Assembly: GCF_035268745.1 (NCBI RefSeq)
Contig: NZ_DATFKH010000120.1
Location: forward strand, 21,161 to 85,160
Source of the DNA: Marinobacter sp.
GTDB lineage: Bacteria; Pseudomonadota; Gammaproteobacteria; Pseudomonadales; Oleiphilaceae
Reading direction: 5' to 3'
DNA: 64,000 bases
The notes beneath the pieces were generated by a model. It was not told the DNA's origin. It did no database searches and saw nothing but the letters and a program-made list of their open reading frames with translations. Shown here one piece after another: positions 11,062 through 21,362 of this stretch (position 1 is the first letter of the stretch; every line of letters starts with the position of its first letter). The position numbers and the translations under genes are program-made.

Positions 11062-12513
11062 TCAAGCCCCGTTTGCCAGTAACTGGCGATAGTGTCGGGC
11101 CTTCGGGGTTACCTGGCGCTTATCGAATTCTTGCGCCAGCAGCCGGCAGGCTTCGTCCGCCAGGCTCTTGTCGCCGGCACTGCGAAGGCGTTCGAAAGCT
11201 CGCTCGGCGGATTTCAGATCGTCGTTACGCAGGCAGGTGAACAGCACCCGGTTGTGATCCTCCGCCGCCAGTGGAAAGTGGCTTTCTCCCAGCTTCATGT
11301 ATTCGGCCCAGACTTCAATCGTGCGCTCTGGCTGGCGTGCGTTCAGCTTTTCATTCATCAGCTTGCGGGCGTATTCGCGATAGGCAGCCCGGTCCGGCCG
11401 GAGCTTGGCCAGCTGGTAGAGGTGCTCGAGCACAACGATCCGGTCGGGATAGTGCTCCCGCAATGCTGCAAACTGCCGCTCGGCAAGATCGAACTCCATA
11501 CTGCCGAGGCTCGCCATGGCCCGGGCATAACCGGCGGTGAAGCGCTCGTCCTGCTCGTCTTCTTCCGGTTGGTAAAATTCCTCCTTGACCTGGAGCCAGC
11601 TTTTGCCCAACAGCCAGACCAGCCCAGCCCCGGCCACCAGTCCGCCCGCATGGGCCATGTAGGCGATGCCGGTGGCCCCGGCGAACCAGTAGTCATAAAC
11701 CTCCTTACCCAGCCATACCGGCAGCATCGCCAGTGCCGGCGCGCGGAAGTAGTTGAAATAGACCCCGACAAAATAGAAAAAGCGGATTTTCTGCAAACCG
11801 TAGATGGCCACGTACATGCCCATCAGACCGGAGATGGAACCGGACGCGCCCACCAGCGGCACGGTGCTGCCAGCAGAAAACGCCGCGAATACCAGGCCGG
11901 AGATGGCGCCACACGCCAGGTACGCCAGCAGAAAGCGGGCAGCACCCAGCGCTTTCTCTACGGTGAAACCGAGCAGAAACAGAAACACCAGGTTGCCGAT
12001 AATGTGGCCCCAGCCACCGTGAAGAAACTGATAGGTCACCAGGGTGTAAACTGACAGTTCGGCAGGCACCAGTCCCAACTGGTTGGCGCTCAGGCGGTTG
12101 ACATATCGCTGCTGGATCTCGCTGCGCTGGGCCAACCATGCCCGGCGTTGGTCTGAAGCCCAGATCAGGCCCCGGTTTTCCAGCAGGTACTGATAGAATT
12201 CGTTATCGAACAGAAGGGTGGCCGCAATCCAGACCTGTTCGCCCTGTTCCTGCAGGGTATTGAAGCCCTCCAACCGGGAAACCAGTTCTTCCCTGCCTTC
12301 CAGCCGAATCTGGCGTTGCAGATAATCCTCGTAGGCCGGTGCCTCCAGTACCTGCAGGTCCGCATTCAGATAGGCTTCCAGCGCCTTGTTGGCGAGCCGG
12401 TCATCGTCGCCCTGGTAAAACACAAAGACCAGAAAACAGGCCATGACCAGGCTCAGTGTCATCCAGGGCGGGCGTTTCCAGTTGACAGGAGTTTCCGCAG
12501 GGATAATCAGCAT
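11062..12513 (-). CDS. Rhomboid family intramembrane serine protease with C-terminal TPR-like domain
   Basis: FLHGGWGHIIGN, catalytic GASGS, second catalytic His in AYMAHAGG. Soluble helical tail. Confidence 0.9.
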   Translation of the reverse strand: MLIIPAETPVNWKRPPWMTLSLVMACFLVFVFYQGDDDRLANKALEAYLNADLQVLEAPAYEDYLQRQIRLEGREELVSRLEGFNTLQEQGEQVWIAATLLFDNEFYQYLLENRGLIWASDQRRAWLAQRSEIQQRYVNRLSANQLGLVPAELSVYTLVTYQFLHGGWGHIIGNLVFLFLLGFTVEKALGAARFLLAYLACGAISGLVFAAFSAGSTVPLVGASGSISGLMGMYVAIYGLQKIRFFYFVGVYFNYFRAPALAMLPVWLGKEVYDYWFAGATGIAYMAHAGGLVAGAGLVWLLGKSWLQVKEEFYQPEEDEQDERFTAGYARAMASLGSMEFDLAERQFAALREHYPDRIVVLEHLYQLAKLRPDRAAYREYARKLMNEKLNARQPERTIEVWAEYMKLGESHFPLAAEDHNRVLFTCLRNDDLKSAERAFERLRSAGDKSLADEACRLLAQEFDKRQVTPKARHYRQLLANGA

Positions 12514-12515
12514 GG

Positions 12516-12541
12516 ATTGTCACAATTCATCATTATTCGCC
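12516..12541 (+). promoter_or_regulatory. Putative response-regulator direct-repeat box (copy A)
   Basis: ATTGTC-acaa-TTCATC-atta-TTCGCC with a 10-bp period. 20/26 identical to copy B at 17645-17670 (minus strand). Confidence 0.5.
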
Positions 12542-12748
12542 TCGCCAGACCTGCTTTTTACCACAGCATGGCCTGTTTTTCGCGGTGTAATAAATCTGCA
12601 GCGAAATCGTAGGACGATCAGGGCGCTGATACTGTGAACGCAGCCGCACCGACGCCATTCGACCTGTCGCTTATGGTAATTGCCCCCACCGGCATCAATA
12701 ATACCGGGGGCAAAAGCAACAAAGGCCTGAAAATCAGAGGAATCAACC

Positions 12749-13183
12749 ATGACTGTACTTGTACTCGACCACACCAGGCTGATGGCCCAGAACACTTTTG
12801 CCGCCGCGGGCGGAGGCCCGGATGATTGCCCCGGGCGACCGCACCGCAAGCGCTTCCACTTCGGCTTCAATCAGCACCGGCTGAACCCGGACGATCAGGC
12901 ACTGCTGCGCCAGCACGCGGTCTGGCTGAAGCACAACCCCGGCGCCTGCCTGCACATTCACGGCCATTCCGATGGCTTCGGTGTAAGCGAATACAACCAG
13001 TTTCTGTCGCGGCTCAGAGCCAGTAGCGCTGCCAGGCTTATGCTCAGTGAAGGCGCACGGGAAACCCAGATTGTCATCAGTGGATGGGGCAGCGACCGGC
13101 CCCTTGCCAGGCTGGAGGATCACGCCGCCAACCGGCGCCTGGAGCTGGAGTATATCACCATGGATATGGCACAGGCCCTGTAA
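12749..13183 (+). CDS. Stand-alone OmpA/Pal-like peptidoglycan-binding domain protein (possible PdsO equivalent)
   Basis: FHFGFN..L, GHSD..G..EYNQFLSRLRA, GWG..RP, NRRLE. AGAGGA RBS. No signal peptide. Confidence 0.82.
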   Translation: MTVLVLDHTRLMAQNTFAAAGGGPDDCPGRPHRKRFHFGFNQHRLNPDDQALLRQHAVWLKHNPGACLHIHGHSDGFGVSEYNQFLSRLRASSAARLMLSEGARETQIVISGWGSDRPLARLEDHAANRRLELEYITMDMAQAL

Positions 13184-13201
13184 TCCGCCCCTGGGCGGGG
13201 A

Positions 13202-13606
13202 CTAGCCGTAAACCTGGAACACGTTCCAGAACAGCAGCAACGACAATACCAGAATGGCCAGCCAGGTCAGCAGGATGCCCACCATGCGTGCCATGTGTGG
13301 GCCACCACGGCCATTGATCATGCCAAACGCGTGGAGCAGGCGCCCCGCCACAAATGCCATCCCGGTCCAGTAGACCAGCGTGCCCGGCACGCCATTGAGC
13401 TCGGCGATGGCCAGCATGATCAGGCCGACTGGTGCATATTCGACCAGGTTGGCGTGAGCCCGCACCGCGGCCTGAAAATCGATATCATCGCTTACTCCCA
13501 GCCCCTGCCTGAACTTCAGGCGATAGCGGGAAACAAGAAAAGAAAGAACAAGTAGTAACAGCCCCAGAACGGCGGCGAAAACTGCAGAAACAGGTACGAT
13601 CATCAT
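13202..13606 (-). CDS. MAPEG family membrane protein (YecN-like)
   Basis: VRAHANLVEYAP and GRLLHAFG motifs. About 4 TM helices. Confidence 0.88.
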   Translation of the reverse strand: MMIVPVSAVFAAVLGLLLLVLSFLVSRYRLKFRQGLGVSDDIDFQAAVRAHANLVEYAPVGLIMLAIAELNGVPGTLVYWTGMAFVAGRLLHAFGMINGRGGPHMARMVGILLTWLAILVLSLLLFWNVFQVYG

Positions 13607-13848
13607 CAGGCCTTCTTGATTGCGCTAACCACGGCAAGTAACAGCACTGCACCCACCGTCGCGGTGACCAGTTCCCCCACCGCGCCCTGGGCCGCAAGCC
13701 CGAGCAGACGGAACACAAACCCTCCCAGGATTGAACCCACAATACCGATACCGATATTGGCCATGACGCCAAAACCGCGACCTTTCATGATCAGTCCCGC
13801 CAGCCAGCCGGCAATACCACCAATAATCAGAAACAGAATCAGATTCAT
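13606..13848 (-). CDS. GlsB/YeaQ/YmgE (transglycosylase-associated) membrane protein
   Basis: 80 aa, IIGGIAGWLAGLIMKG..G...NI.IGIVGS...ATVGAVLLL. Confidence 0.9.
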   Translation of the reverse strand: MNLILFLIIGGIAGWLAGLIMKGRGFGVMANIGIGIVGSILGGFVFRLLGLAAQGAVGELVTATVGAVLLLAVVSAIKKA

Positions 13849-13925
13849 AACCTACCCCTTTGAGTTATGCGGCAAGACTGCCCGTTTTCATGACCCGCTT
13901 CAAGCATTTCCCGCCCGGTTGGCGG

Positions 13926-14639
13926 TCAGTCACGAATCGGGGCCAGGGTGGCAATCGTCGCCGCCATGGTGTCGTGGCACTCCCTGATCAGCCCGGGAAT
14001 ATCATCCCGGGTAAGGCCGGCGGTTTCCACCGGGGGCAACACCCTGATGGCAACCGGTTCCCGCCGGCCGGACCAGCCGATCACCTTATCCTGATACTGG
14101 CTGACGCACACCATGGTGATGGGTGCCCCGGCCTCCACCGCGGTGTAAAAAGCACCTTTCTTGAAACTCTGCAGGCCCCGCCCCCGGCTGCGGGTGCCTT
14201 CCGGGAACACCCACAGGCTTTTGCGCTCCCGGCTGATGGCATGGGCCGCGGCTCGCATGGCCACAACGGCCCGGTCGGAGCGGCTGCGATCCAGCATCAC
14301 ATTGCCGCCAAGCCAGAAAACCTGGCCGAAAAAAGGCACCCACACCAGAGCCTTTTTACCCACCGTTACGGTTCGCGGCGGCAGCAGCCCGCCCAGCATG
14401 AACAGGTCATCGTTGTGCTGGTGATTGGCGATAACCACGGTCGGGCGGTCGACCGGAATATTTTCCCGGCCGCTGACCGTGCATTTCATCCCCAGCAGGG
14501 CACAACCGACTTTGGCGATTGCCCAGGCCAGATAACGGTTATTATCAGGGTTAAAAGGCCGCGCCAGATAGAAAAGCAGGGCGAAAAGACAAATAATGAG
14601 GACACTCATCCAGGCCAGAAATTTTCTCAGCAATCCCAT
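13926..14639 (-). CDS. plsC: 1-acyl-sn-glycerol-3-phosphate acyltransferase
   Basis: NHQHNDD (HX4D), FPEGTRS, FKKGAF. Confidence 0.92.
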   Translation of the reverse strand: MGLLRKFLAWMSVLIICLFALLFYLARPFNPDNNRYLAWAIAKVGCALLGMKCTVSGRENIPVDRPTVVIANHQHNDDLFMLGGLLPPRTVTVGKKALVWVPFFGQVFWLGGNVMLDRSRSDRAVVAMRAAAHAISRERKSLWVFPEGTRSRGRGLQSFKKGAFYTAVEAGAPITMVCVSQYQDKVIGWSGRREPVAIRVLPPVETAGLTRDDIPGLIRECHDTMAATIATLAPIRD

Positions 14640-14672
14640 CCAGATAACCCTGATCTAGTTACCAAGCTGAAA

Positions 14673-14796
14673 GAAAGTAGGCGGACACGTCCATTCAGGA
14701 CCGTATGCAGCAGGGATGCTGCATCCGAGCCTACATGGATGTATTCACGGCGTGTCCTGAATGGACGTGTCCGCCTACTTTCCTACTCATTAGTAA
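14673..14796. repeat. REP/REPIN-like inverted-repeat element
   Basis: Perfect 29-bp arms 14673-14701 (GAAAGTAGGCGGACACGTCCATTCAGGAC) and 14754-14782. Internal hairpin ATGCAGCA-ggga-TGCTGCAT. The right flank recurs at 39164. Confidence 0.8.
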
Positions 14797-14808
14797 TGGC
14801 GCACAGGT

Positions 14809-15408
14809 TCAGCTTTCGACAACTGCCGCCAGCTCGCTGCCAATGGCCTCTGCGTATACTACGTAGCGTAGCGGTCCGTTGGCCTCAATGCTATTGAAGG
14901 GATAGCAGGTTACCAGCAGCAATGAATCGCGGGGCAGCATGGACTCGTTGATCCGGTGGTAACGGCTGTCCACCACCCGGGTACTGCTGATCCGGAAGCT
15001 CCGCCACTGACCGCCACGGCTCTGGAGCTTCAGCGTAGCGCCGGTTTCAAGATGCTCCAGGCTTCGGAAATGGGTATCCCGATGACCGGCAATCACTGTT
15101 GGCCCGGCGTTCTGGTCGCCGCCAACAACCTGGCCAGGGCCAAAGGCCAGACTTTCACCATGGGCTCCATCCAGCACGATCAACGACTGCCGGCTTCCGT
15201 CCCCGTCCTCGTCGGGTTGCAGGACGAGGCGGGCCACCGGCCAGGTGTCCGCCCAGGGCCAGGGGCGAACCTGCATCTGGCGGGCCTGGCTCTCCGCCCA
15301 GGCCAGCTCGAGCAATTCCTGGGCGACCAGTGCCTTGAACGGAATCCAGAGGCCAAACGCCAGTATTGCAAAGGACAAGACGGTAGTGAGCATGCACAGG
15401 TATTTCAT
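14809..15408 (-). CDS. Class GN (marine proteobacterial) sortase
   Basis: Catalytic IAGHRDTHF, LVTCYPF and LRYVV. N-terminal TM. Probable start at 15408 overlaps the target gene stop (TGATG). Confidence 0.9.
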   Translation of the reverse strand: MKYLCMLTTVLSFAILAFGLWIPFKALVAQELLELAWAESQARQMQVRPWPWADTWPVARLVLQPDEDGDGSRQSLIVLDGAHGESLAFGPGQVVGGDQNAGPTVIAGHRDTHFRSLEHLETGATLKLQSRGGQWRSFRISSTRVVDSRYHRINESMLPRDSLLLVTCYPFNSIEANGPLRYVVYAEAIGSELAAVVES

Positions 15409-17534
15409 CACAGCGCCCGCCATTTCAGCAGGCCAATCGCTGCACTGAACATCAGCCCCAGCAGACCCAGCGCCTGGAACAATGGCGCCAGGGTGGCGGT
15501 CTGCGGATAACGCAGCATTCCTGAGGCCAGCCCGGCAGGCAGCAATGTCGGGACGCTGTCAGCAGCCATAGCTGCCGATTCCGGTCGGGACGGCGTTCGG
15601 TCCACGGCCAGAAAACTGGTGTAGGGCGTGATCAGGTCATGCTCCAGGCCCAGGGCCGTGACCCTTGTGGCGATATCGCCCCGGGCCGGCGCTTGCGGAT
15701 CTTTGCCAAGCGTGTGGGCATCCAGCAGGGCATCAATCTGCTGTCGCGCCCATACCCGGTGCAGCCCTTTGCCGCTGGCGGCCTGTTCCAGACTGAGCGA
15801 TTGTTGCCAGGTACTGCCGTCAGGCAGTATTCCTGACACCTGCAGATCCCCCTGCGGGGCCTGACCACGAACCACCTGACTCAGTGGCTCGCCGCGGAAC
15901 AGATCCCCGATCCGGTGCGGCCGGGCACTCTGTTGCGCTGACGCATCCGGCCACTCCATGCGGATATTGGTTAACACCGCCGACTGCATCTTGCCGAACA
16001 GCTCAGCAAGACGGCGCTCCAGATCCGACCTGCTGTTGATGGCGGTGTGGGTGCCACGGCCAAAACGCGCCGCCTCGCGCATGAAGTGCATGTTGGGCGC
16101 CGAACCGATGCCCACGGTAAACAGGCGGGTGTCCCCCAATTGCTGCTCGATACGCTGGAACAGCGCCGATTCGTTACCCACCGAACCGTCGGTGATAAAC
16201 ACCACCTGACGCAAGCGCTGAACACCGTCCGGCGTTTGCGATACGGCCCCGGACTTCCGCTGATTCAGGGCAGCATCCAGCGCCGAAGCCATTTCCGTGC
16301 CGCCCTCTGCCTCCAGACTGCGGACATAGCGACGGGCCCGGGCCAGATTATTACCACTGGCAGGCACCGGATCGATAAACAGTGAGGCGGTCTGGCTGTT
16401 GAACTGGATAACGTTGAACAGATCGTCCGGCCCCAGCGTGTCCAGCCCCCGCAGCAGCGACTGTTTTGCCTGAGCTATGGATTCCCCCGCCATGGAGCCA
16501 GAGGTATCGATCACAAACACCAGTTCCCGGGCCATCTGCTGATCGGATTCCAGTCCCGGGATCATCATCGCCAACAGGTAGCTCTCGCCCTGCCACTGCT
16601 GCTGGAAAACCGCGGCGGAAGGCGTCATTCCCCGTGCTGGCGCCCAGCGAACCACCAGATCCCGATCCATGGCGAAGCTTCCTGCGCTGGTGGTTACCGC
16701 CACCGAATTACCATTCCAGTTACTGGCCAGCTGATGGCCGGGGCTGCTGACCCGGCTGACCGGCAGGCCGGCCCTGATGCTCATGGTGATGGTCGCCTGA
16801 TGGCTGCCAGCGGCCACATCCTCGGGCAAGACCGTATGGGGGCTGATGCGGTCGGCGTCCGGCACTGCGGTGGTCGGGCTTGCCCAGCCACCCTGCCAGG
16901 CCGTCGCGCCATCGCGAACAACCTTGCCCGGCATATAGCGGGGCGTCAGGGTCGTTGGCAGGCGTAGCTCGAATTCCCCGGACTGATAACGCACAGGCTG
17001 CTGATAGCTGAGATCAATGGCAATCGACTCTCCCGGTGGAATGTTCGCCAGATGCGTGGTGAACAGGTTGGGCCGCTGCTGATCGACTCTCGCCACCTTC
17101 CGGCCTTCGCTTCTGGCTTTGGCGTATTGCTGTCTGGCCACCTCCTTTTCCCGGATTTCTCCCCGGATAAGGCGCTCGCCCGCCATCATGGTCAGGCCGT
17201 AGACACTGGCTTTTGCCGGCAGAGGAAAAACATAGACGGCTTCCCGCCATTGCCGGCCCGGATTGCGGAAAGTCTGGCTCAGGCGCACATCCGCCACCAG
17301 CCCGGTCACCTCGACCTGATAGTCGGTGCTTACCAGCGTTGCCGATTCCAGCCCGGGACCCGGTGAGTCCAGAAACCTCAGCTCACCGGCGCCTGCAGAG
17401 GCTTCGGCATACATGGGCTGGACAAACAGAAACAGCAACACCGCCAGCCACAGCGAGATGTCCTCCATTATCCGGCGGACACGCCTGGCCGGGATGGGTG
17501 ATACAGGTCGGGACAGCGAACAGGTTGGCAGCAT
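15408..17534 (-). CDS. Marine proteobacterial sortase target protein (VIT + vWA, LPXTG-like tail)
   Basis: VIT domain (EAVYVFPLP), vWA MIDAS motif FVIDTSGSM and FITDG. C-terminal YPQTAT + TM + KWR. Confidence 0.9.
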   Translation of the reverse strand: MLPTCSLSRPVSPIPARRVRRIMEDISLWLAVLLFLFVQPMYAEASAGAGELRFLDSPGPGLESATLVSTDYQVEVTGLVADVRLSQTFRNPGRQWREAVYVFPLPAKASVYGLTMMAGERLIRGEIREKEVARQQYAKARSEGRKVARVDQQRPNLFTTHLANIPPGESIAIDLSYQQPVRYQSGEFELRLPTTLTPRYMPGKVVRDGATAWQGGWASPTTAVPDADRISPHTVLPEDVAAGSHQATITMSIRAGLPVSRVSSPGHQLASNWNGNSVAVTTSAGSFAMDRDLVVRWAPARGMTPSAAVFQQQWQGESYLLAMMIPGLESDQQMARELVFVIDTSGSMAGESIAQAKQSLLRGLDTLGPDDLFNVIQFNSQTASLFIDPVPASGNNLARARRYVRSLEAEGGTEMASALDAALNQRKSGAVSQTPDGVQRLRQVVFITDGSVGNESALFQRIEQQLGDTRLFTVGIGSAPNMHFMREAARFGRGTHTAINSRSDLERRLAELFGKMQSAVLTNIRMEWPDASAQQSARPHRIGDLFRGEPLSQVVRGQAPQGDLQVSGILPDGSTWQQSLSLEQAASGKGLHRVWARQQIDALLDAHTLGKDPQAPARGDIATRVTALGLEHDLITPYTSFLAVDRTPSRPESAAMAADSVPTLLPAGLASGMLRYPQTATLAPLFQALGLLGLMFSAAIGLLKWRAL

Positions 17535-17644
17535 GATTCCATTTCCTTTCCAGCGTGAAAACCAGCGCCCGGGTGCAAGAGCGGCTGGTCACTATTGAAA
17601 CCTCCGGAAAGGACCATCCGGTGCCGGAAAGCGGCGGATTAGCC

Positions 17645-17670
17645 GATGAAAAATGATGAATTGTGGCGAG
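17645..17670 (-). promoter_or_regulatory. Putative response-regulator direct-repeat box (copy B)
   Basis: Minus strand CTCGCC-acaa-TTCATC-attt-TTCATC, between the divergent target gene and pdsR. Confidence 0.55.
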
Positions 17671-17765
17671 GGGGTGCCGCACCCTTGTTCTGCAGCAGTA
17701 CCGTGGTTAAATGGAGGCTTCCATCCCCGCTCAGGGGCAAGAGTCCAACAGACTGGCTCAAGGTT

Positions 17766-18467
17766 ATGAAACGTCACCTCGTGCTCATTGAAGATGAACC
17801 TGCCATTCGCGAGAACTACCGCGATGCGTTTGAACGCCGTGGTTATCGGGTGTCGGCCTACAGCAACCGCAACAGCGCGTTTCAGGCACTGCGGGCAGGC
17901 CTGCCGGATCTGGCAATCATTGATGTTGGCCTGGGCGACGAGCCTGAGGGCGGATTTACCCTGTGCCAGGACCTGCGCGTACTGTCGCCAACCCTGCCAA
18001 TCATCTTCCTGACCGCCCGGGACAGCGATATCGATTCAGTCCACGGGCTGAGACTGGGCGCGGACGATTATGTCACCAAAGACATGAGCATGGATCACCT
18101 GCTGGCGCGGGTAACCGCCCTGCTCCGCCGGGCCGACGCCTGGTCGGAAGCACTCAGACAGCCGGACGAAGTACTGAACCGCGGCCGCCTGACGCTGAAC
18201 GTGGACCGTATGACGGCCCAGTGGGACAGCCACGCCATCGAACTGACCGTCACCGAATTCTGGATGCTGCACTCACTGGTTCAGCACCCGGGCCATGTGC
18301 GCAGCCGCGACCAGCTGATGGACGCCGCCAGCACAGTGCTGGACAATAATACCGTCACCTCCCACATCAAACGCATCCGCAGAAAGTTTCAGGACGTGGA
18401 CAGTGCCTTTGACGGCATTCACACAGCCTATGGCATGGGTTACCGCTGGAACGCCCATGAGGCCTGA
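17766..18467 (+). CDS. pdsR: Sortase-system OmpR-family response regulator PdsR
   Basis: MKRHLVLIEDE.AIRENY, receiver + wHTH, TVTSHIKRIRRKF..YGMGYRW. Start set at the in-frame ATG 17766. Confidence 0.85.
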   Translation: MKRHLVLIEDEPAIRENYRDAFERRGYRVSAYSNRNSAFQALRAGLPDLAIIDVGLGDEPEGGFTLCQDLRVLSPTLPIIFLTARDSDIDSVHGLRLGADDYVTKDMSMDHLLARVTALLRRADAWSEALRQPDEVLNRGRLTLNVDRMTAQWDSHAIELTVTEFWMLHSLVQHPGHVRSRDQLMDAASTVLDNNTVTSHIKRIRRKFQDVDSAFDGIHTAYGMGYRWNAHEA

Positions 18468-18470
18468 TTC

Positions 18471-20492
18471 GTGACCCTGAAACGCCAGTTGGTCATTGCC
18501 AGCGTGCTGATGCTGGTCATTCCCTGGGCCGGCCTGCAGTTCGTTCTGGAGCTGGACACTGCCCTGCGGCAGCAGGCGGCTACGCAACTGGAGCAACAGG
18601 CCGGCAGAGTGGCCAGCCTGATCGACGTTCCGGCAATTGATGAATCACGACCAGGTGGTAAACCGGTAACCTACGCCCCCACCCTTGACCGCTCGCTGGA
18701 ACCCGATGGCTACGGCTCCGACTGGCCCGAGTATGACGAAGAGCACAGCAGCCAGCCCTGGCAGGGCACTGGCACATTGCCCGATAATGCCACTCTGAAA
18801 TGGAGGGTGGCCGTGCAGGAAAACAATCTTTATCTGCTGGTCCGGATCAATAATCGCATGCAGGGTTTTTACCAACCGTCCCGGCCGGAGCAGCCGTTTG
18901 ATCAACTGCTAATCTCTATTGAGCAACCACAGGATGTCATCGAACGGCTTGTGCCGCGCCTAAGCCACGGCAGGATCAATGGGCTTGTACCAGGGAGGAG
19001 TAATGCGCTGGACTACAGATTTCGCGGAGCGTGGCAATTACCCGACAATAACGGCCACCAGCTTGAACTGCGACTGCCACGGCCGGAACAAGGCGCTGGA
19101 TTCGGCTTTCAATTGATGGGCCCGGTTGAGGAAAGCGAAAGCAGAACCAGCCGGCAACAGCCGCTGTTCGAATACCCTGATAGCCGGCTGATCAGCCGTC
19201 AGGCCCCACTGGAACAGCGGTTGGAACAGCTGATTGCACCCGGGCAGAGCGCCTGGGTTCTGCAACCGGAAGGCTGGGTGATCGCCCGGCAGACCCAACC
19301 CTCGAACCTCCGGAGACCGGCTTTCGACAGCCTGACGCCCGCCCAGATTCTCGAGCGCATCAGTCTCAACGCCCTGCGGGCACTGGTGCGGGCCTATCAG
19401 CCCGAACCGATCCTGGTCGATAGCGACGCCCACCAGTTCAGCGGTAGTGAACTGCCCGACCGCGGCCTGGTGCGCCACGGCAACGGCGATCTCTATCTGC
19501 TGACCACCGAAACCCTGGCCAGCGGCCACACGCTGGTGCTGGAGGAATCCCTGGATCAGATGCTGACCCTGTCCGGCAGCACCCTGGGTTCGGTGATTGC
19601 CCGCAGCGCCCTGCTTCTGATCGTGCTGACGCTGGCACTGCTGGGCTATGCCAGCTGGTTGTCCTGGCGTATCACCCGGCTGCAGCGAGCGGTCAGCGCC
19701 AGCATTGATGACGACGGCCGCCTGCTGCGAACCCTGCCACCGGTGACAGCGAAGGACGAACTTGGCGACCTGTCCCGCCAGTTCAGTCATCTTACCGAGC
19801 GGCTGCACGGCTACACCCACTATCTCGAAAGCTTCTCCCGCCGACTGTCCCACGAACTGAAAACCCCCATCGCCGTCGTGCGCTCGTCCCTGGAGAACCT
19901 CAGTCAGAGCGCCAGCGACGAAGACCGGGCAAACTATCTGGCCCGGGCCAGGACCGCGACCGACCGCCTGAGCCAGATTCTTCATGGCATGAGCGAGGCG
20001 GCACGGCTGGAACAGAGCCTGGACCATGCCGAAAAGGAAAGCTTTGATCTGGCCGATGTCTGCGTCCAGACCACCGCGGCTTATCAGTCACTGGCACCGG
20101 ATTTCCGGGTTCGCTATCAGGGTCCGCAGCAAGGGGTTCGATACCACGGCTCGCCGGAGCTGCTGGTGCAGTTGCTGGACAAACTGGTGGACAACGCCCG
20201 GGATTTCACACCGCAAGGCGGCCTGATCGAGATCAGCCTGCGCCGGGAGTCGCAATATCTGCTGCTGAGTGTGTTCAACCAGGGCTCCGCGCTGCCCGAA
20301 GAACTGGCCCAGGACATTTTCAGCCCCTTTGTATCGGTCCGCTCCCCGGGCCAGGAAGGACATCTTGGCCAGGGACTGCTGATCGCCCGGCTGATCGCCG
20401 AACACCATCGCGGGCGAATCCAGGCCGGCAATGAAAACGGAGGTGTCCGGTTCACCGTCGCGCTGCCCAAGGAACCTCTGACCAACTCCTGA
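18471..20492 (+). CDS. pdsS: Sortase-system sensor histidine kinase PdsS
   Basis: TM, large periplasmic domain, TM, HAMP, H-box LSHELKTPIAVVRSSLENL, GHLGQGL. Confidence 0.85.
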   Translation: MTLKRQLVIASVLMLVIPWAGLQFVLELDTALRQQAATQLEQQAGRVASLIDVPAIDESRPGGKPVTYAPTLDRSLEPDGYGSDWPEYDEEHSSQPWQGTGTLPDNATLKWRVAVQENNLYLLVRINNRMQGFYQPSRPEQPFDQLLISIEQPQDVIERLVPRLSHGRINGLVPGRSNALDYRFRGAWQLPDNNGHQLELRLPRPEQGAGFGFQLMGPVEESESRTSRQQPLFEYPDSRLISRQAPLEQRLEQLIAPGQSAWVLQPEGWVIARQTQPSNLRRPAFDSLTPAQILERISLNALRALVRAYQPEPILVDSDAHQFSGSELPDRGLVRHGNGDLYLLTTETLASGHTLVLEESLDQMLTLSGSTLGSVIARSALLLIVLTLALLGYASWLSWRITRLQRAVSASIDDDGRLLRTLPPVTAKDELGDLSRQFSHLTERLHGYTHYLESFSRRLSHELKTPIAVVRSSLENLSQSASDEDRANYLARARTATDRLSQILHGMSEAARLEQSLDHAEKESFDLADVCVQTTAAYQSLAPDFRVRYQGPQQGVRYHGSPELLVQLLDKLVDNARDFTPQGGLIEISLRRESQYLLLSVFNQGSALPEELAQDIFSPFVSVRSPGQEGHLGQGLLIARLIAEHHRGRIQAGNENGGVRFTVALPKEPLTNS

Positions 20493-20585: not shown

Positions 20586-21362
20586 CTAACTGAACGTGCC
20601 CGCAAACTGACGGTAGAACTGTTGGGCGGTCCGGCCATTGCGAACACCCTTGGCAGTGGCAAACCGGATCGCCTCCTGATGCAGGGCAGCACGGTTCCGG
20701 ATCTCCGGAAACAGTGCATCCACCGCCTGCAGATAGATGTCCTGGGGAAACGGATAGAACGACAGCTGGAGACCAAACCGGTCCGCCAGTGATACCTGCT
20801 CCTCAATGGCCTCAGCCGGATGAAGTTCGCCATCACGGACCTGGCTCTGCAGGTTGTCCGCCATGAACTCCGGCATCAGGTGGCGGCGGTTGGATGTGGC
20901 ATAGACCCGGACGTTTTCCGGCGGCAGTTCCAGTGAACCTTCCAGTACACTCTTCAGGGCCTTATAACCGGACTCGCCGGCATCAAAGGAAAGGTCGTCG
21001 CAGAAAATCACAAACCGGAATCGCAGATCGCACAGATCATCGACAATTTCCGGCAGGTTGACCAGGTCATCCTTGTCCACCTCGATCATGCGCAGTCCCT
21101 GATCCCTGTAGCGATTCAGCAGCGCCTTGATCAGCGAGGACTTGCCGGTGCCCCGGGAGCCCCAGAGCAGGGCATTGTTGGAGGGCTCACCGGCAAGAAA
21201 CCGCTCGGTGTTGCGGCCCAGCGCCTGCCGCTGGCGATCAATACCCTTCAGACTCTCCCACTGCACCGGATCGAGCCGGCGAATGCCCCGCAGAACACCA
21301 CGGTGTCGGCGCCAGACTGCGGCGTGGGTCGATTCCCAGTCGATAGTTCCAGGTTCGCCCAT
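20586..21362 (-). CDS. DUF815 family AAA+ ATPase
   Basis: Walker A WGSRGTGKSS, FCDDLSF, YKALKSVLEGS, ATSNRRHL. Start moved to ATG 21362, just after the upstream stop. Confidence 0.88.
   Translation of the reverse strand: MGEPGTIDWESTHAAVWRRHRGVLRGIRRLDPVQWESLKGIDRQRQALGRNTERFLAGEPSNNALLWGSRGTGKSSLIKALLNRYRDQGLRMIEVDKDDLVNLPEIVDDLCDLRFRFVIFCDDLSFDAGESGYKALKSVLEGSLELPPENVRVYATSNRRHLMPEFMADNLQSQVRDGELHPAEAIEEQVSLADRFGLQLSFYPFPQDIYLQAVDALFPEIRNRAALHQEAIRFATAKGVRNGRTAQQFYRQFAGTFS

Follow-up and report, generated by a model that had tools for sequence, protein, structure and literature searches.

The peptidoglycan-damage-sensing two-component system PdsSR of Shewanella oneidensis, described there as PghKR (SO2192/SO2193; bioRxiv 10.1101/2023.05.05.539549; mBio 2026, PMC13712847), controls both beta-lactam resistance and beta-lactam tolerance in Shewanella, and the 2023 preprint is still cited as its primary description in the 2026 paper. 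In S. oneidensis, PghKR is required to induce pdsO, SO2195 and SO2196, which form a divergent operon behind a 232-bp spacer, and also controls blaA, relV, creD and phoPQ, while pghR itself is induced more than 60-fold (10.1101/2023.05.05.539549; PMC13712847). In Shewanella algae, the pdsS G547W allele raises expression of pdsR 18-fold, of the sortase 126-fold, of the sortase target 388-fold and of pdsO 799-fold (PMC11580497). A DNA motif, an electrophoretic mobility shift assay or a footprint for PghR/PdsR was found in none of the published PghKR/PdsSR descriptions consulted in an incomplete literature search (10.1101/2023.05.05.539549; PMC13712847; PMC11580497). Here we describe a candidate operator of this regulator in a 64-kb stretch of Marinobacter sp. 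DNA (NZ_DATFKH010000120.1, positions 21,161 to 85,160; hereafter the window), where two copies of one direct-repeat box, box A and box B, stand in two divergent promoter regions about 5 kb apart. The system itself is known; the literature searched names no DNA target for it, and the putative operator would be new.

The locus resembles that of Shewanella in that a regulator of the TIGR03787 family is encoded divergently beside a sortase-target/sortase operon, and the gene classes near the boxes are those known from Shewanella, where PghR switches on an OmpA-like gene together with those for the sortase target and the sortase, and where pghR is itself induced. The pdsR gene and the pdsS-like kinase gene of the window are equivalent to pghR and pghK of Shewanella. 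Whereas pdsO heads the sortase operon in Shewanella, the window holds a separate 144-aa OmpA-like gene 5 kb away, which, unlike Shewanella pdsO, has its own copy of the box and adjoins a rhomboid gene. In Marinobacter, an alanine-aminotransferase-like gene seems to join the set known for Shewanella PghKR.

Box A (12516-12541, plus strand) reads ATTGTCACAATTCATCATTATTCGCC and box B (17670-17645, minus strand) reads CTCGCCACAATTCATCATTTTTCATC, both 26-mers being found exactly where a preceding sequence-only reading of this DNA had placed them. The two copies agree at 20 of 26 positions and share the exact 14-mer CACAATTCATCATT; their conserved cores are TTGTCACAATTCATCATTATT (12517-12537) and TCGCCACAATTCATCATTTTT (17669-17649), respectively. 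Only 2 nt separate box A from the rhomboid ATG; it stands 207 nt upstream of the OmpA-domain gene, toward which it reads, and box B lies between the sortase-target gene, toward which it reads from a distance of 110 nt, and pdsR, 95 nt away. Shared words of at least 14 nt between the two spacers (235 and 231 nt) arose in one of 5000 dinucleotide-preserving shuffles, in agreement with the earlier rough estimate of about 1e-3. When up to two mismatches were allowed, boxes A and B were the sole matches in the window both to CACAATTCATCATT (0.40 expected) and to the degenerate pattern of hexamers separated by N4 (0.09 expected).

The box is conserved among relatives. Global MAFFT alignment of the upstream regions proved too gappy, and ungapped anchored alignments, a Hamming anchor and a weight matrix were used on 80 loci with PdsR relatives, 79 of which include the sequence upstream of pdsR (57 from Marinobacter and 22 from other gammaproteobacterial families). 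In 72 of these 79 loci a close match to box B precedes the pdsR start by about 100 nt, in Marinobacter, Halieaceae, Hahellaceae, Porticoccaceae and others, while the spacer sequence flanking it was not conserved. Its consensus on the pdsR strand is AAAAATGATSAATTRTGGCAA; in the more distant families the box reads CAATTGTGATCAATTGTGGCAA, plainly a tandem repeat. A matrix scan of all loci found box A in 44 Marinobacter loci, about 5.1-5.3 kb from pdsR, in constant relative orientation and always 2 nt from the rhomboid start codon, within the kept gene order rhomboid, box A, OmpA-like, MAPEG, PlsC-like, sortase, target, box B, pdsR, pdsS. One locus each from Oleiphilaceae, Hahellaceae, Halieaceae and Parendozoicomonas likewise carries a second box upstream of, and pointing at, an OmpA/PdsO-like gene, and no rhomboid gene was detected by search near that box in these four loci, which is why we assign box A to the OmpA-like gene and not to the rhomboid gene. 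In a class-wide sample, 17 of the 25 loci with pdsO beside pdsR had a matrix match in the spacer, built of tandem ATGGCAA units. Co-presence of box A and the OmpA-like gene (44 loci with both, five with neither) was not used as evidence because the five apparently lacking loci leave enough room for a diverged gene and carry degenerate boxes.

The box is also specific within the genome. A 26-column weight matrix, built from 65 unique orthologous pdsR-upstream sites with the window's own sites excluded, gave 37.2 bits for box A and 35.1 bits for box B, with the rest of the window below 8 bits. Across the whole 3.43-Mb assembly only four sites exceeded 20 bits, the other two scoring 32.0 and 27.7 bits; below them came a site of 18.5 bits inside polA and then noise at 15 bits or less, and the matches at 10-19 bits, which lie mostly within genes such as polA, were taken as noise. 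Strong copies number only three to four per genome, all of them in promoters. Conservation in orthologues and the genome-wide scan, both named in the sequence-only reading as ways to check its proposal, therefore speak for it, and the worry raised there that the 14-mer might be common across unrelated spacers was unfounded.

Boxes A and B account for two of the four sites. The 32.0-bit site, outside the window at contig C52:19496-19521, is flanked by an alanine-aminotransferase-like gene on one side and a glutathione peroxidase gene (gpx) on the other, and a box was present at the orthologous place in 30 of 30 sampled Marinobacter genomes (10.6 to 34.1 bits). In 29 of these a strongly conserved TAGAAT, directed toward the aminotransferase gene, lies 49-50 nt away from the box, while gpx is found anywhere between 42 and 159 nt from it, pointing to the aminotransferase gene as the likely regulated one; a third conserved operator is thus likely to precede this gene. 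The 27.7-bit site (contig C38:21276-21301, likewise outside the window), in the spacer between moaA and a gene for an NsrR/Rrf2-type regulator, was not counted in the core regulon, as it was unconserved in 29 other loci of the genus, where the relatives keep only the CAATTATGGCAAA half. Separately, most Marinobacter genomes (L082-L110) showed a conserved palindrome, AAATTGTGCACAATAT, some 20-60 nt ahead of gpx; it contains the box word AATTGTG as an inverted repeat and is probably the site of a different regulator.

The occurrence of the box follows that of pdsR. In 301 genomes of the same order, 80 with and 221 without pdsR, the exact core TGATSAATTRTGRC was found 1.28 times per genome with pdsR as against 0.27 times per genome without it (relatedness among the genomes being uncorrected), and the latter value is close to the estimated chance rate of about 0.24; a reversed control pattern gave fewer matches. 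At least two core matches were found in 29 of 80 pdsR-positive genomes versus four of 221 pdsR-negative ones. Within Marinobacter, 30 of 31 sampled genomes have pdsR, and the one without it, a complete genome (G241, locus L111), showed neither a core match nor a box at its rhomboid orthologue. That genome also lacks the gpx orthologue and the OmpA-like gene, and its rhomboid gene directly follows the MAPEG gene. The earlier suggestion that the two boxes are an operator defining the PdsR regulon has in this way been strengthened by conservation, specificity and co-occurrence with pdsR; it was too narrow in that the regulon appears to exceed those two sites, and PdsR itself is the presumed binding protein.

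The anatomy of the box was examined on a pooled set of 129 unique sites from the three promoter classes. The pooled consensus is a continuous conserved block of about 20 bp, GCCACAATTCATCAYnnTT, in which conservation of the first spacer, ACAA, equals that of the central hexamer (1.64 and 1.67 bits per position, respectively). Column self-similarity peaked at offset 10 (0.52, versus 0.20-0.32 at other offsets). From the continuous conservation and this peak, we read the repeat unit as 10 bp with the core CAYAATT, that is, TTGCCAYAAT followed head-to-tail by TSATCAYWWT. The 10-bp phasing recognized in the sequence-only reading is therefore retained, its division into three hexamers separated by N4 is not, and the third hexamer is weakly conserved (0.81 bits). 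In line with this, the pattern G[AG][TC]GAA-N4-GATGAA matched only three of 79 orthologous loci and was replaced, as the third hexamer is not conserved.

The box is further held at a fixed distance from a putative promoter. Offsets were measured from the TTGCC end of the box, with TNNA[ACT]T taken as a -10-like hexamer. At the sortase-target promoter this hexamer was found at an offset of 69-70 nt in 56 of 58 Marinobacter loci and of 70 nt in nine of 13 loci from other families, and at the OmpA-like promoter at 69-70 nt in all 46 loci. The predicted -10 elements of the window are TGTAAT at 12586-12591 (plus strand) for the OmpA-like gene, 69 nt from the start of box A, and TTCAAT at 17594-17599 (minus strand) for the sortase target, 70 nt from the start of box B; the copies do point toward these two genes, as had been claimed. 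Anchored alignments also revealed a secondary conserved element about 41 nt downstream of the box start at both promoters, TTTACCACAGC (12557-12567, plus strand) behind box A and TTTCCGGCACCGG (17618-17630, minus strand) behind box B, the latter a weaker copy of the genus consensus TTCTGCCAYGG. TTTACCACAGC would overlap the -35 position of the predicted OmpA-like promoter, and TTTCCGGCACCGG that of the predicted sortase-target promoter. Measured to predicted -10 elements, the distance from the box is 49-50 nt at the aminotransferase gene and 69-70 nt at the other two promoters, a shortening by 20 bp or two helical turns. On the pdsR side, a TTG at +16 and a -10-like hexamer at +38 were found in 48 and 44 of 59 Marinobacter loci, respectively; the predicted pdsR promoter of the window (17685-17712, plus strand) consists of -35 TTGTTC (17685-17690), a 16-nt spacer and TGG-TTAAAT with the -10 at 17707-17712, which would put box B at about -74 to -49. 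Transcription is predicted to start near 12598 (plus strand) for the OmpA-like gene, 17587 (minus strand) for the sortase target and 17719 (plus strand) for pdsR.

OmpR-family regulators bind tandem repeats with a period of about 10 bp. The boxes share with the OmpR sites at ompF and ompC and with the pho boxes of PhoB the head-to-tail repeats of about 10 bp (within the 10-11 bp period of such operators) that lie upstream of or overlap a weak -35, and their placement relative to the predicted -10 elements is fixed and helically phased. A receiver plus winged-helix regulator is encoded right beside box B: PdsR is a full-length OmpR-family protein whose residues 1-230 also match CreB, BaeR, PhoB and OmpR. 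Judged by how the repeats are built and placed, the boxes belong to the OmpR/PhoB operator class. They differ from OmpR and PhoB sites in the half-site, CAYAATT or TTGCCAYAAT, and in position, as the main box would be centred near -72 or -51 whereas pho boxes lie over the -35.

The nearest named relative of PdsR is CreB (178.7 bits, below the CreB cut-off of 273), and its site also merits comparison. The cre tag was reportedly given by Avison et al. in 2001 as TTCAC-N6-TTCAC, so that both sites are direct repeats of TTCAY-like words. The period is 10 here versus 11 in the cre tag, and the conserved words here are TTGCC and TTSAT. Identity of the box with the cre tag was rejected, since similarity at offset 11 was at background and PdsR falls short of the CreB cut-off. 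The existence of a cre tag in Escherichia coli is cited elsewhere (PMC3962086), and creD is reported in the PghR regulon of S. oneidensis.

Taken together, it is likely that boxes A and B are operators of the OmpR/PhoB-family regulator PdsR (PghR). We infer that a phosphorylated PdsR dimer would bind the CAYAATT core of the strong distal box, centred near -72, and probably the weaker -35-proximal element as well, and that it would then recruit RNA polymerase to the weak, activator-dependent promoters of the target/sortase operon (box B) and the OmpA-like gene (box A); the direction of regulation is taken by analogy from the published Shewanella expression data. This pairing of a strong distal site with a degenerate, weaker element at the -35 would resemble the hierarchical OmpR sites at ompF and ompC. 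The predicted start site of pdsR is only some 60 bp downstream of box B, which therefore probably also serves positive autoregulation.

Several observations count against this assignment. Seven of the 79 pdsR loci have no recognizable box, and the exact core is missing from 27 of 80 pdsR-positive genomes, which may reflect motif drift, as more distant loci show ATGGCAA variants; the Fisher test of core presence or absence against pdsR (p = 1.5e-10) ignores phylogenetic relatedness; and scanning the two spacers with the strict sigma-70 consensus yielded no promoter, as is expected of activator-dependent promoters, so that the promoter positions are drawn from conservation. Alternatively, the box might serve some other transcription factor, for example a second regulator of the OmpR family or a global regulator of envelope stress, which controls pdsR and its neighbours from above. 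Nothing in the sequence identifies the binding protein, and the third conserved site in the aminotransferase/gpx spacer, unrelated to the sortase system, and the inverted version of the AATTGTG half-site near gpx would also agree with this alternative. Such a factor would have to explain, however, why the box stays beside pdsR across families whose gene orders otherwise differ, why it co-occurs with pdsR genome by genome and is missing where a genome of the genus has no pdsR, and why autoregulation is documented for PghR/PdsR itself, and we give it only a small chance.

Smaller still is the chance that the conserved block belongs to the core promoter, for instance as an UP element or as the site of an alternative sigma factor like sigma-54, and is not an activator site. 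The A/T-rich stretch and the TGGCA word in the box recall such features, and the aminotransferase box, at about -62 to -37, occupies the usual position of an UP element; but the most conserved positions are G/C (GCC and C), unlike those of an UP element, the interval between box and -10 is 69-70 nt at two promoters but 49-50 nt at the third, and a direct repeat with a 10-bp period fits a dimeric winged-helix protein. A sigma-54 site (TGGCAC-N5-TTGC, with GG and GC 10 nt apart) was rejected by eye on the anchored alignments, where TGGCRA is followed by unconserved sequence and the GG and GC dinucleotides either are spaced wrongly by one nucleotide or lack conservation, and CRP-palindrome and UP-element readings were rejected on the anchored alignments and the motif column analysis. 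With only two copies in the window, identical at 20 of 26 positions, one might finally think of a chance likeness or of functionless remnants of a small repeat element. This is in effect refuted, and its probability negligible, as both copies persist in the orthologous place across dozens of genomes despite diverging flanks, the few copies per genome all lie in promoters, and the match was reached in a single one of 5000 shuffles.

Operation of box A by PdsR might also affect the rhomboid gene on its other side. The rhomboid start codon is kept in all orthologues in the anchored alignment, and the conserved ATG has no Shine-Dalgarno sequence (12511-12541). No promoter fits between box A and this ATG, and therefore the rhomboid transcript must start upstream of or inside box A. 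TTTACCACAGC read on the other strand, GCTGTGGTAAA, is a possible extended -10 for the rhomboid gene, and the extended -10-like TGTGGTAAAAA on the minus strand is a candidate rhomboid promoter. Since box A would lie between the start codon and any possible rhomboid promoter, bound PdsR may repress the rhomboid gene or leave it unaffected.

Beyond the operator itself, we tentatively consider that the box marks a small conserved cell-wall-damage regulon in Marinobacter that reaches past the sortase system, with the sortase target and the OmpA-domain protein turned up, the aminotransferase-like gene turned up and the rhomboid leader occluded, a picture that is considerably less certain than the operator assignment. 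If true, activation of the alanine-aminotransferase-like gene could supply L-Ala/D-Ala for peptidoglycan repair, and one bound dimer would turn an envelope protease, the rhomboid protein, down while turning envelope anchors up. The candidate operator thereby suggests two unexpected regulon members, the alanine-aminotransferase-like gene and possibly the rhomboid protease gene. Together with its fixed geometry and the matrix (three to four sites per genome), it should allow the direct regulon to be predicted for hundreds of gammaproteobacteria from the sea and help to separate direct from indirect targets, for example blaA, relV, creD and phoPQ in Shewanella, and mutant boxes and reporter fusions would be simple reagents for studying how Gram-negative sortase systems are switched on. 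The finding is useful rather than surprising.

The gene identities rest on NCBIfam and Pfam profile matches, which upheld the rhomboid, OmpA-domain, sortase-target and PdsR calls of the sequence-only reading. The rhomboid-domain membrane protein (483 aa; 11062-12513, minus strand; PF01694, 91 bits) has box A abutting its start codon. On the other side of box A lies the gene for the small OmpA-domain protein (144 aa, no signal peptide; 12749-13183, plus strand; PF00691), the predicted target of the box and predicted functional counterpart of PdsO. It matched the pdsO model TIGR03789 with 29.9 bits against a cut-off of 152.2, over the C-terminal domain only, and no canonical pdsO was found in the whole genome at E<=1e-40. 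Long lipoprotein forms of this protein exist in a few relatives, and the short form may be a truncated PdsO. In three relatives (L019, L047 and L055), the OmpA-domain protein extends upstream in frame into a linker and a lipoprotein signal (LVGC/ISGC), reaching the size of PdsO, and in the window (12542-13183), where the OmpA-like gene has a leader of about 150 nt, a linker remnant (FDxSPIA-like) was seen out of frame upstream of this gene.

The pdsR gene (17766-18467, plus strand; TIGR03787, 384.9 bits versus a cut-off of 335.7) encodes a protein whose best identities to named Marinobacter genomes are about 88%. It is followed by the gene for the pdsS-like histidine kinase (18471-20492, plus strand), for which TIGR03785 was the best match by far with 541.1 bits, below the cut-off of 612.2. 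The best-scoring stretch covers residues 284-666 only, indicating that the periplasmic sensor part has diverged from the TIGR03785 model; in Shewanella PghK, this part carries a carbohydrate-binding module needed for sensing. On the other side of box B, the genes for the sortase target (VIT-vWA; 15408-17534, minus strand; TIGR03788, 749.2 bits, above the cut-off) and the class GN sortase (14809-15423, minus strand; TIGR03784, 191.8 bits, above the cut-off) are predicted to form an operon (14809-17534, minus strand) driven from box B, and the stretch from the sortase gene to the OmpA-like gene holds genes for a PlsC-like acyltransferase and a protein of the MAPEG family. A G+C-rich hairpin, TGTGGCGAGGGGGTGCCGCA, at 17662-17681 overlaps the pdsR-proximal end of box B. 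The sortase-target and sortase frames overlap by 16 nt (15408-15423), consistent with translational coupling in one operon.

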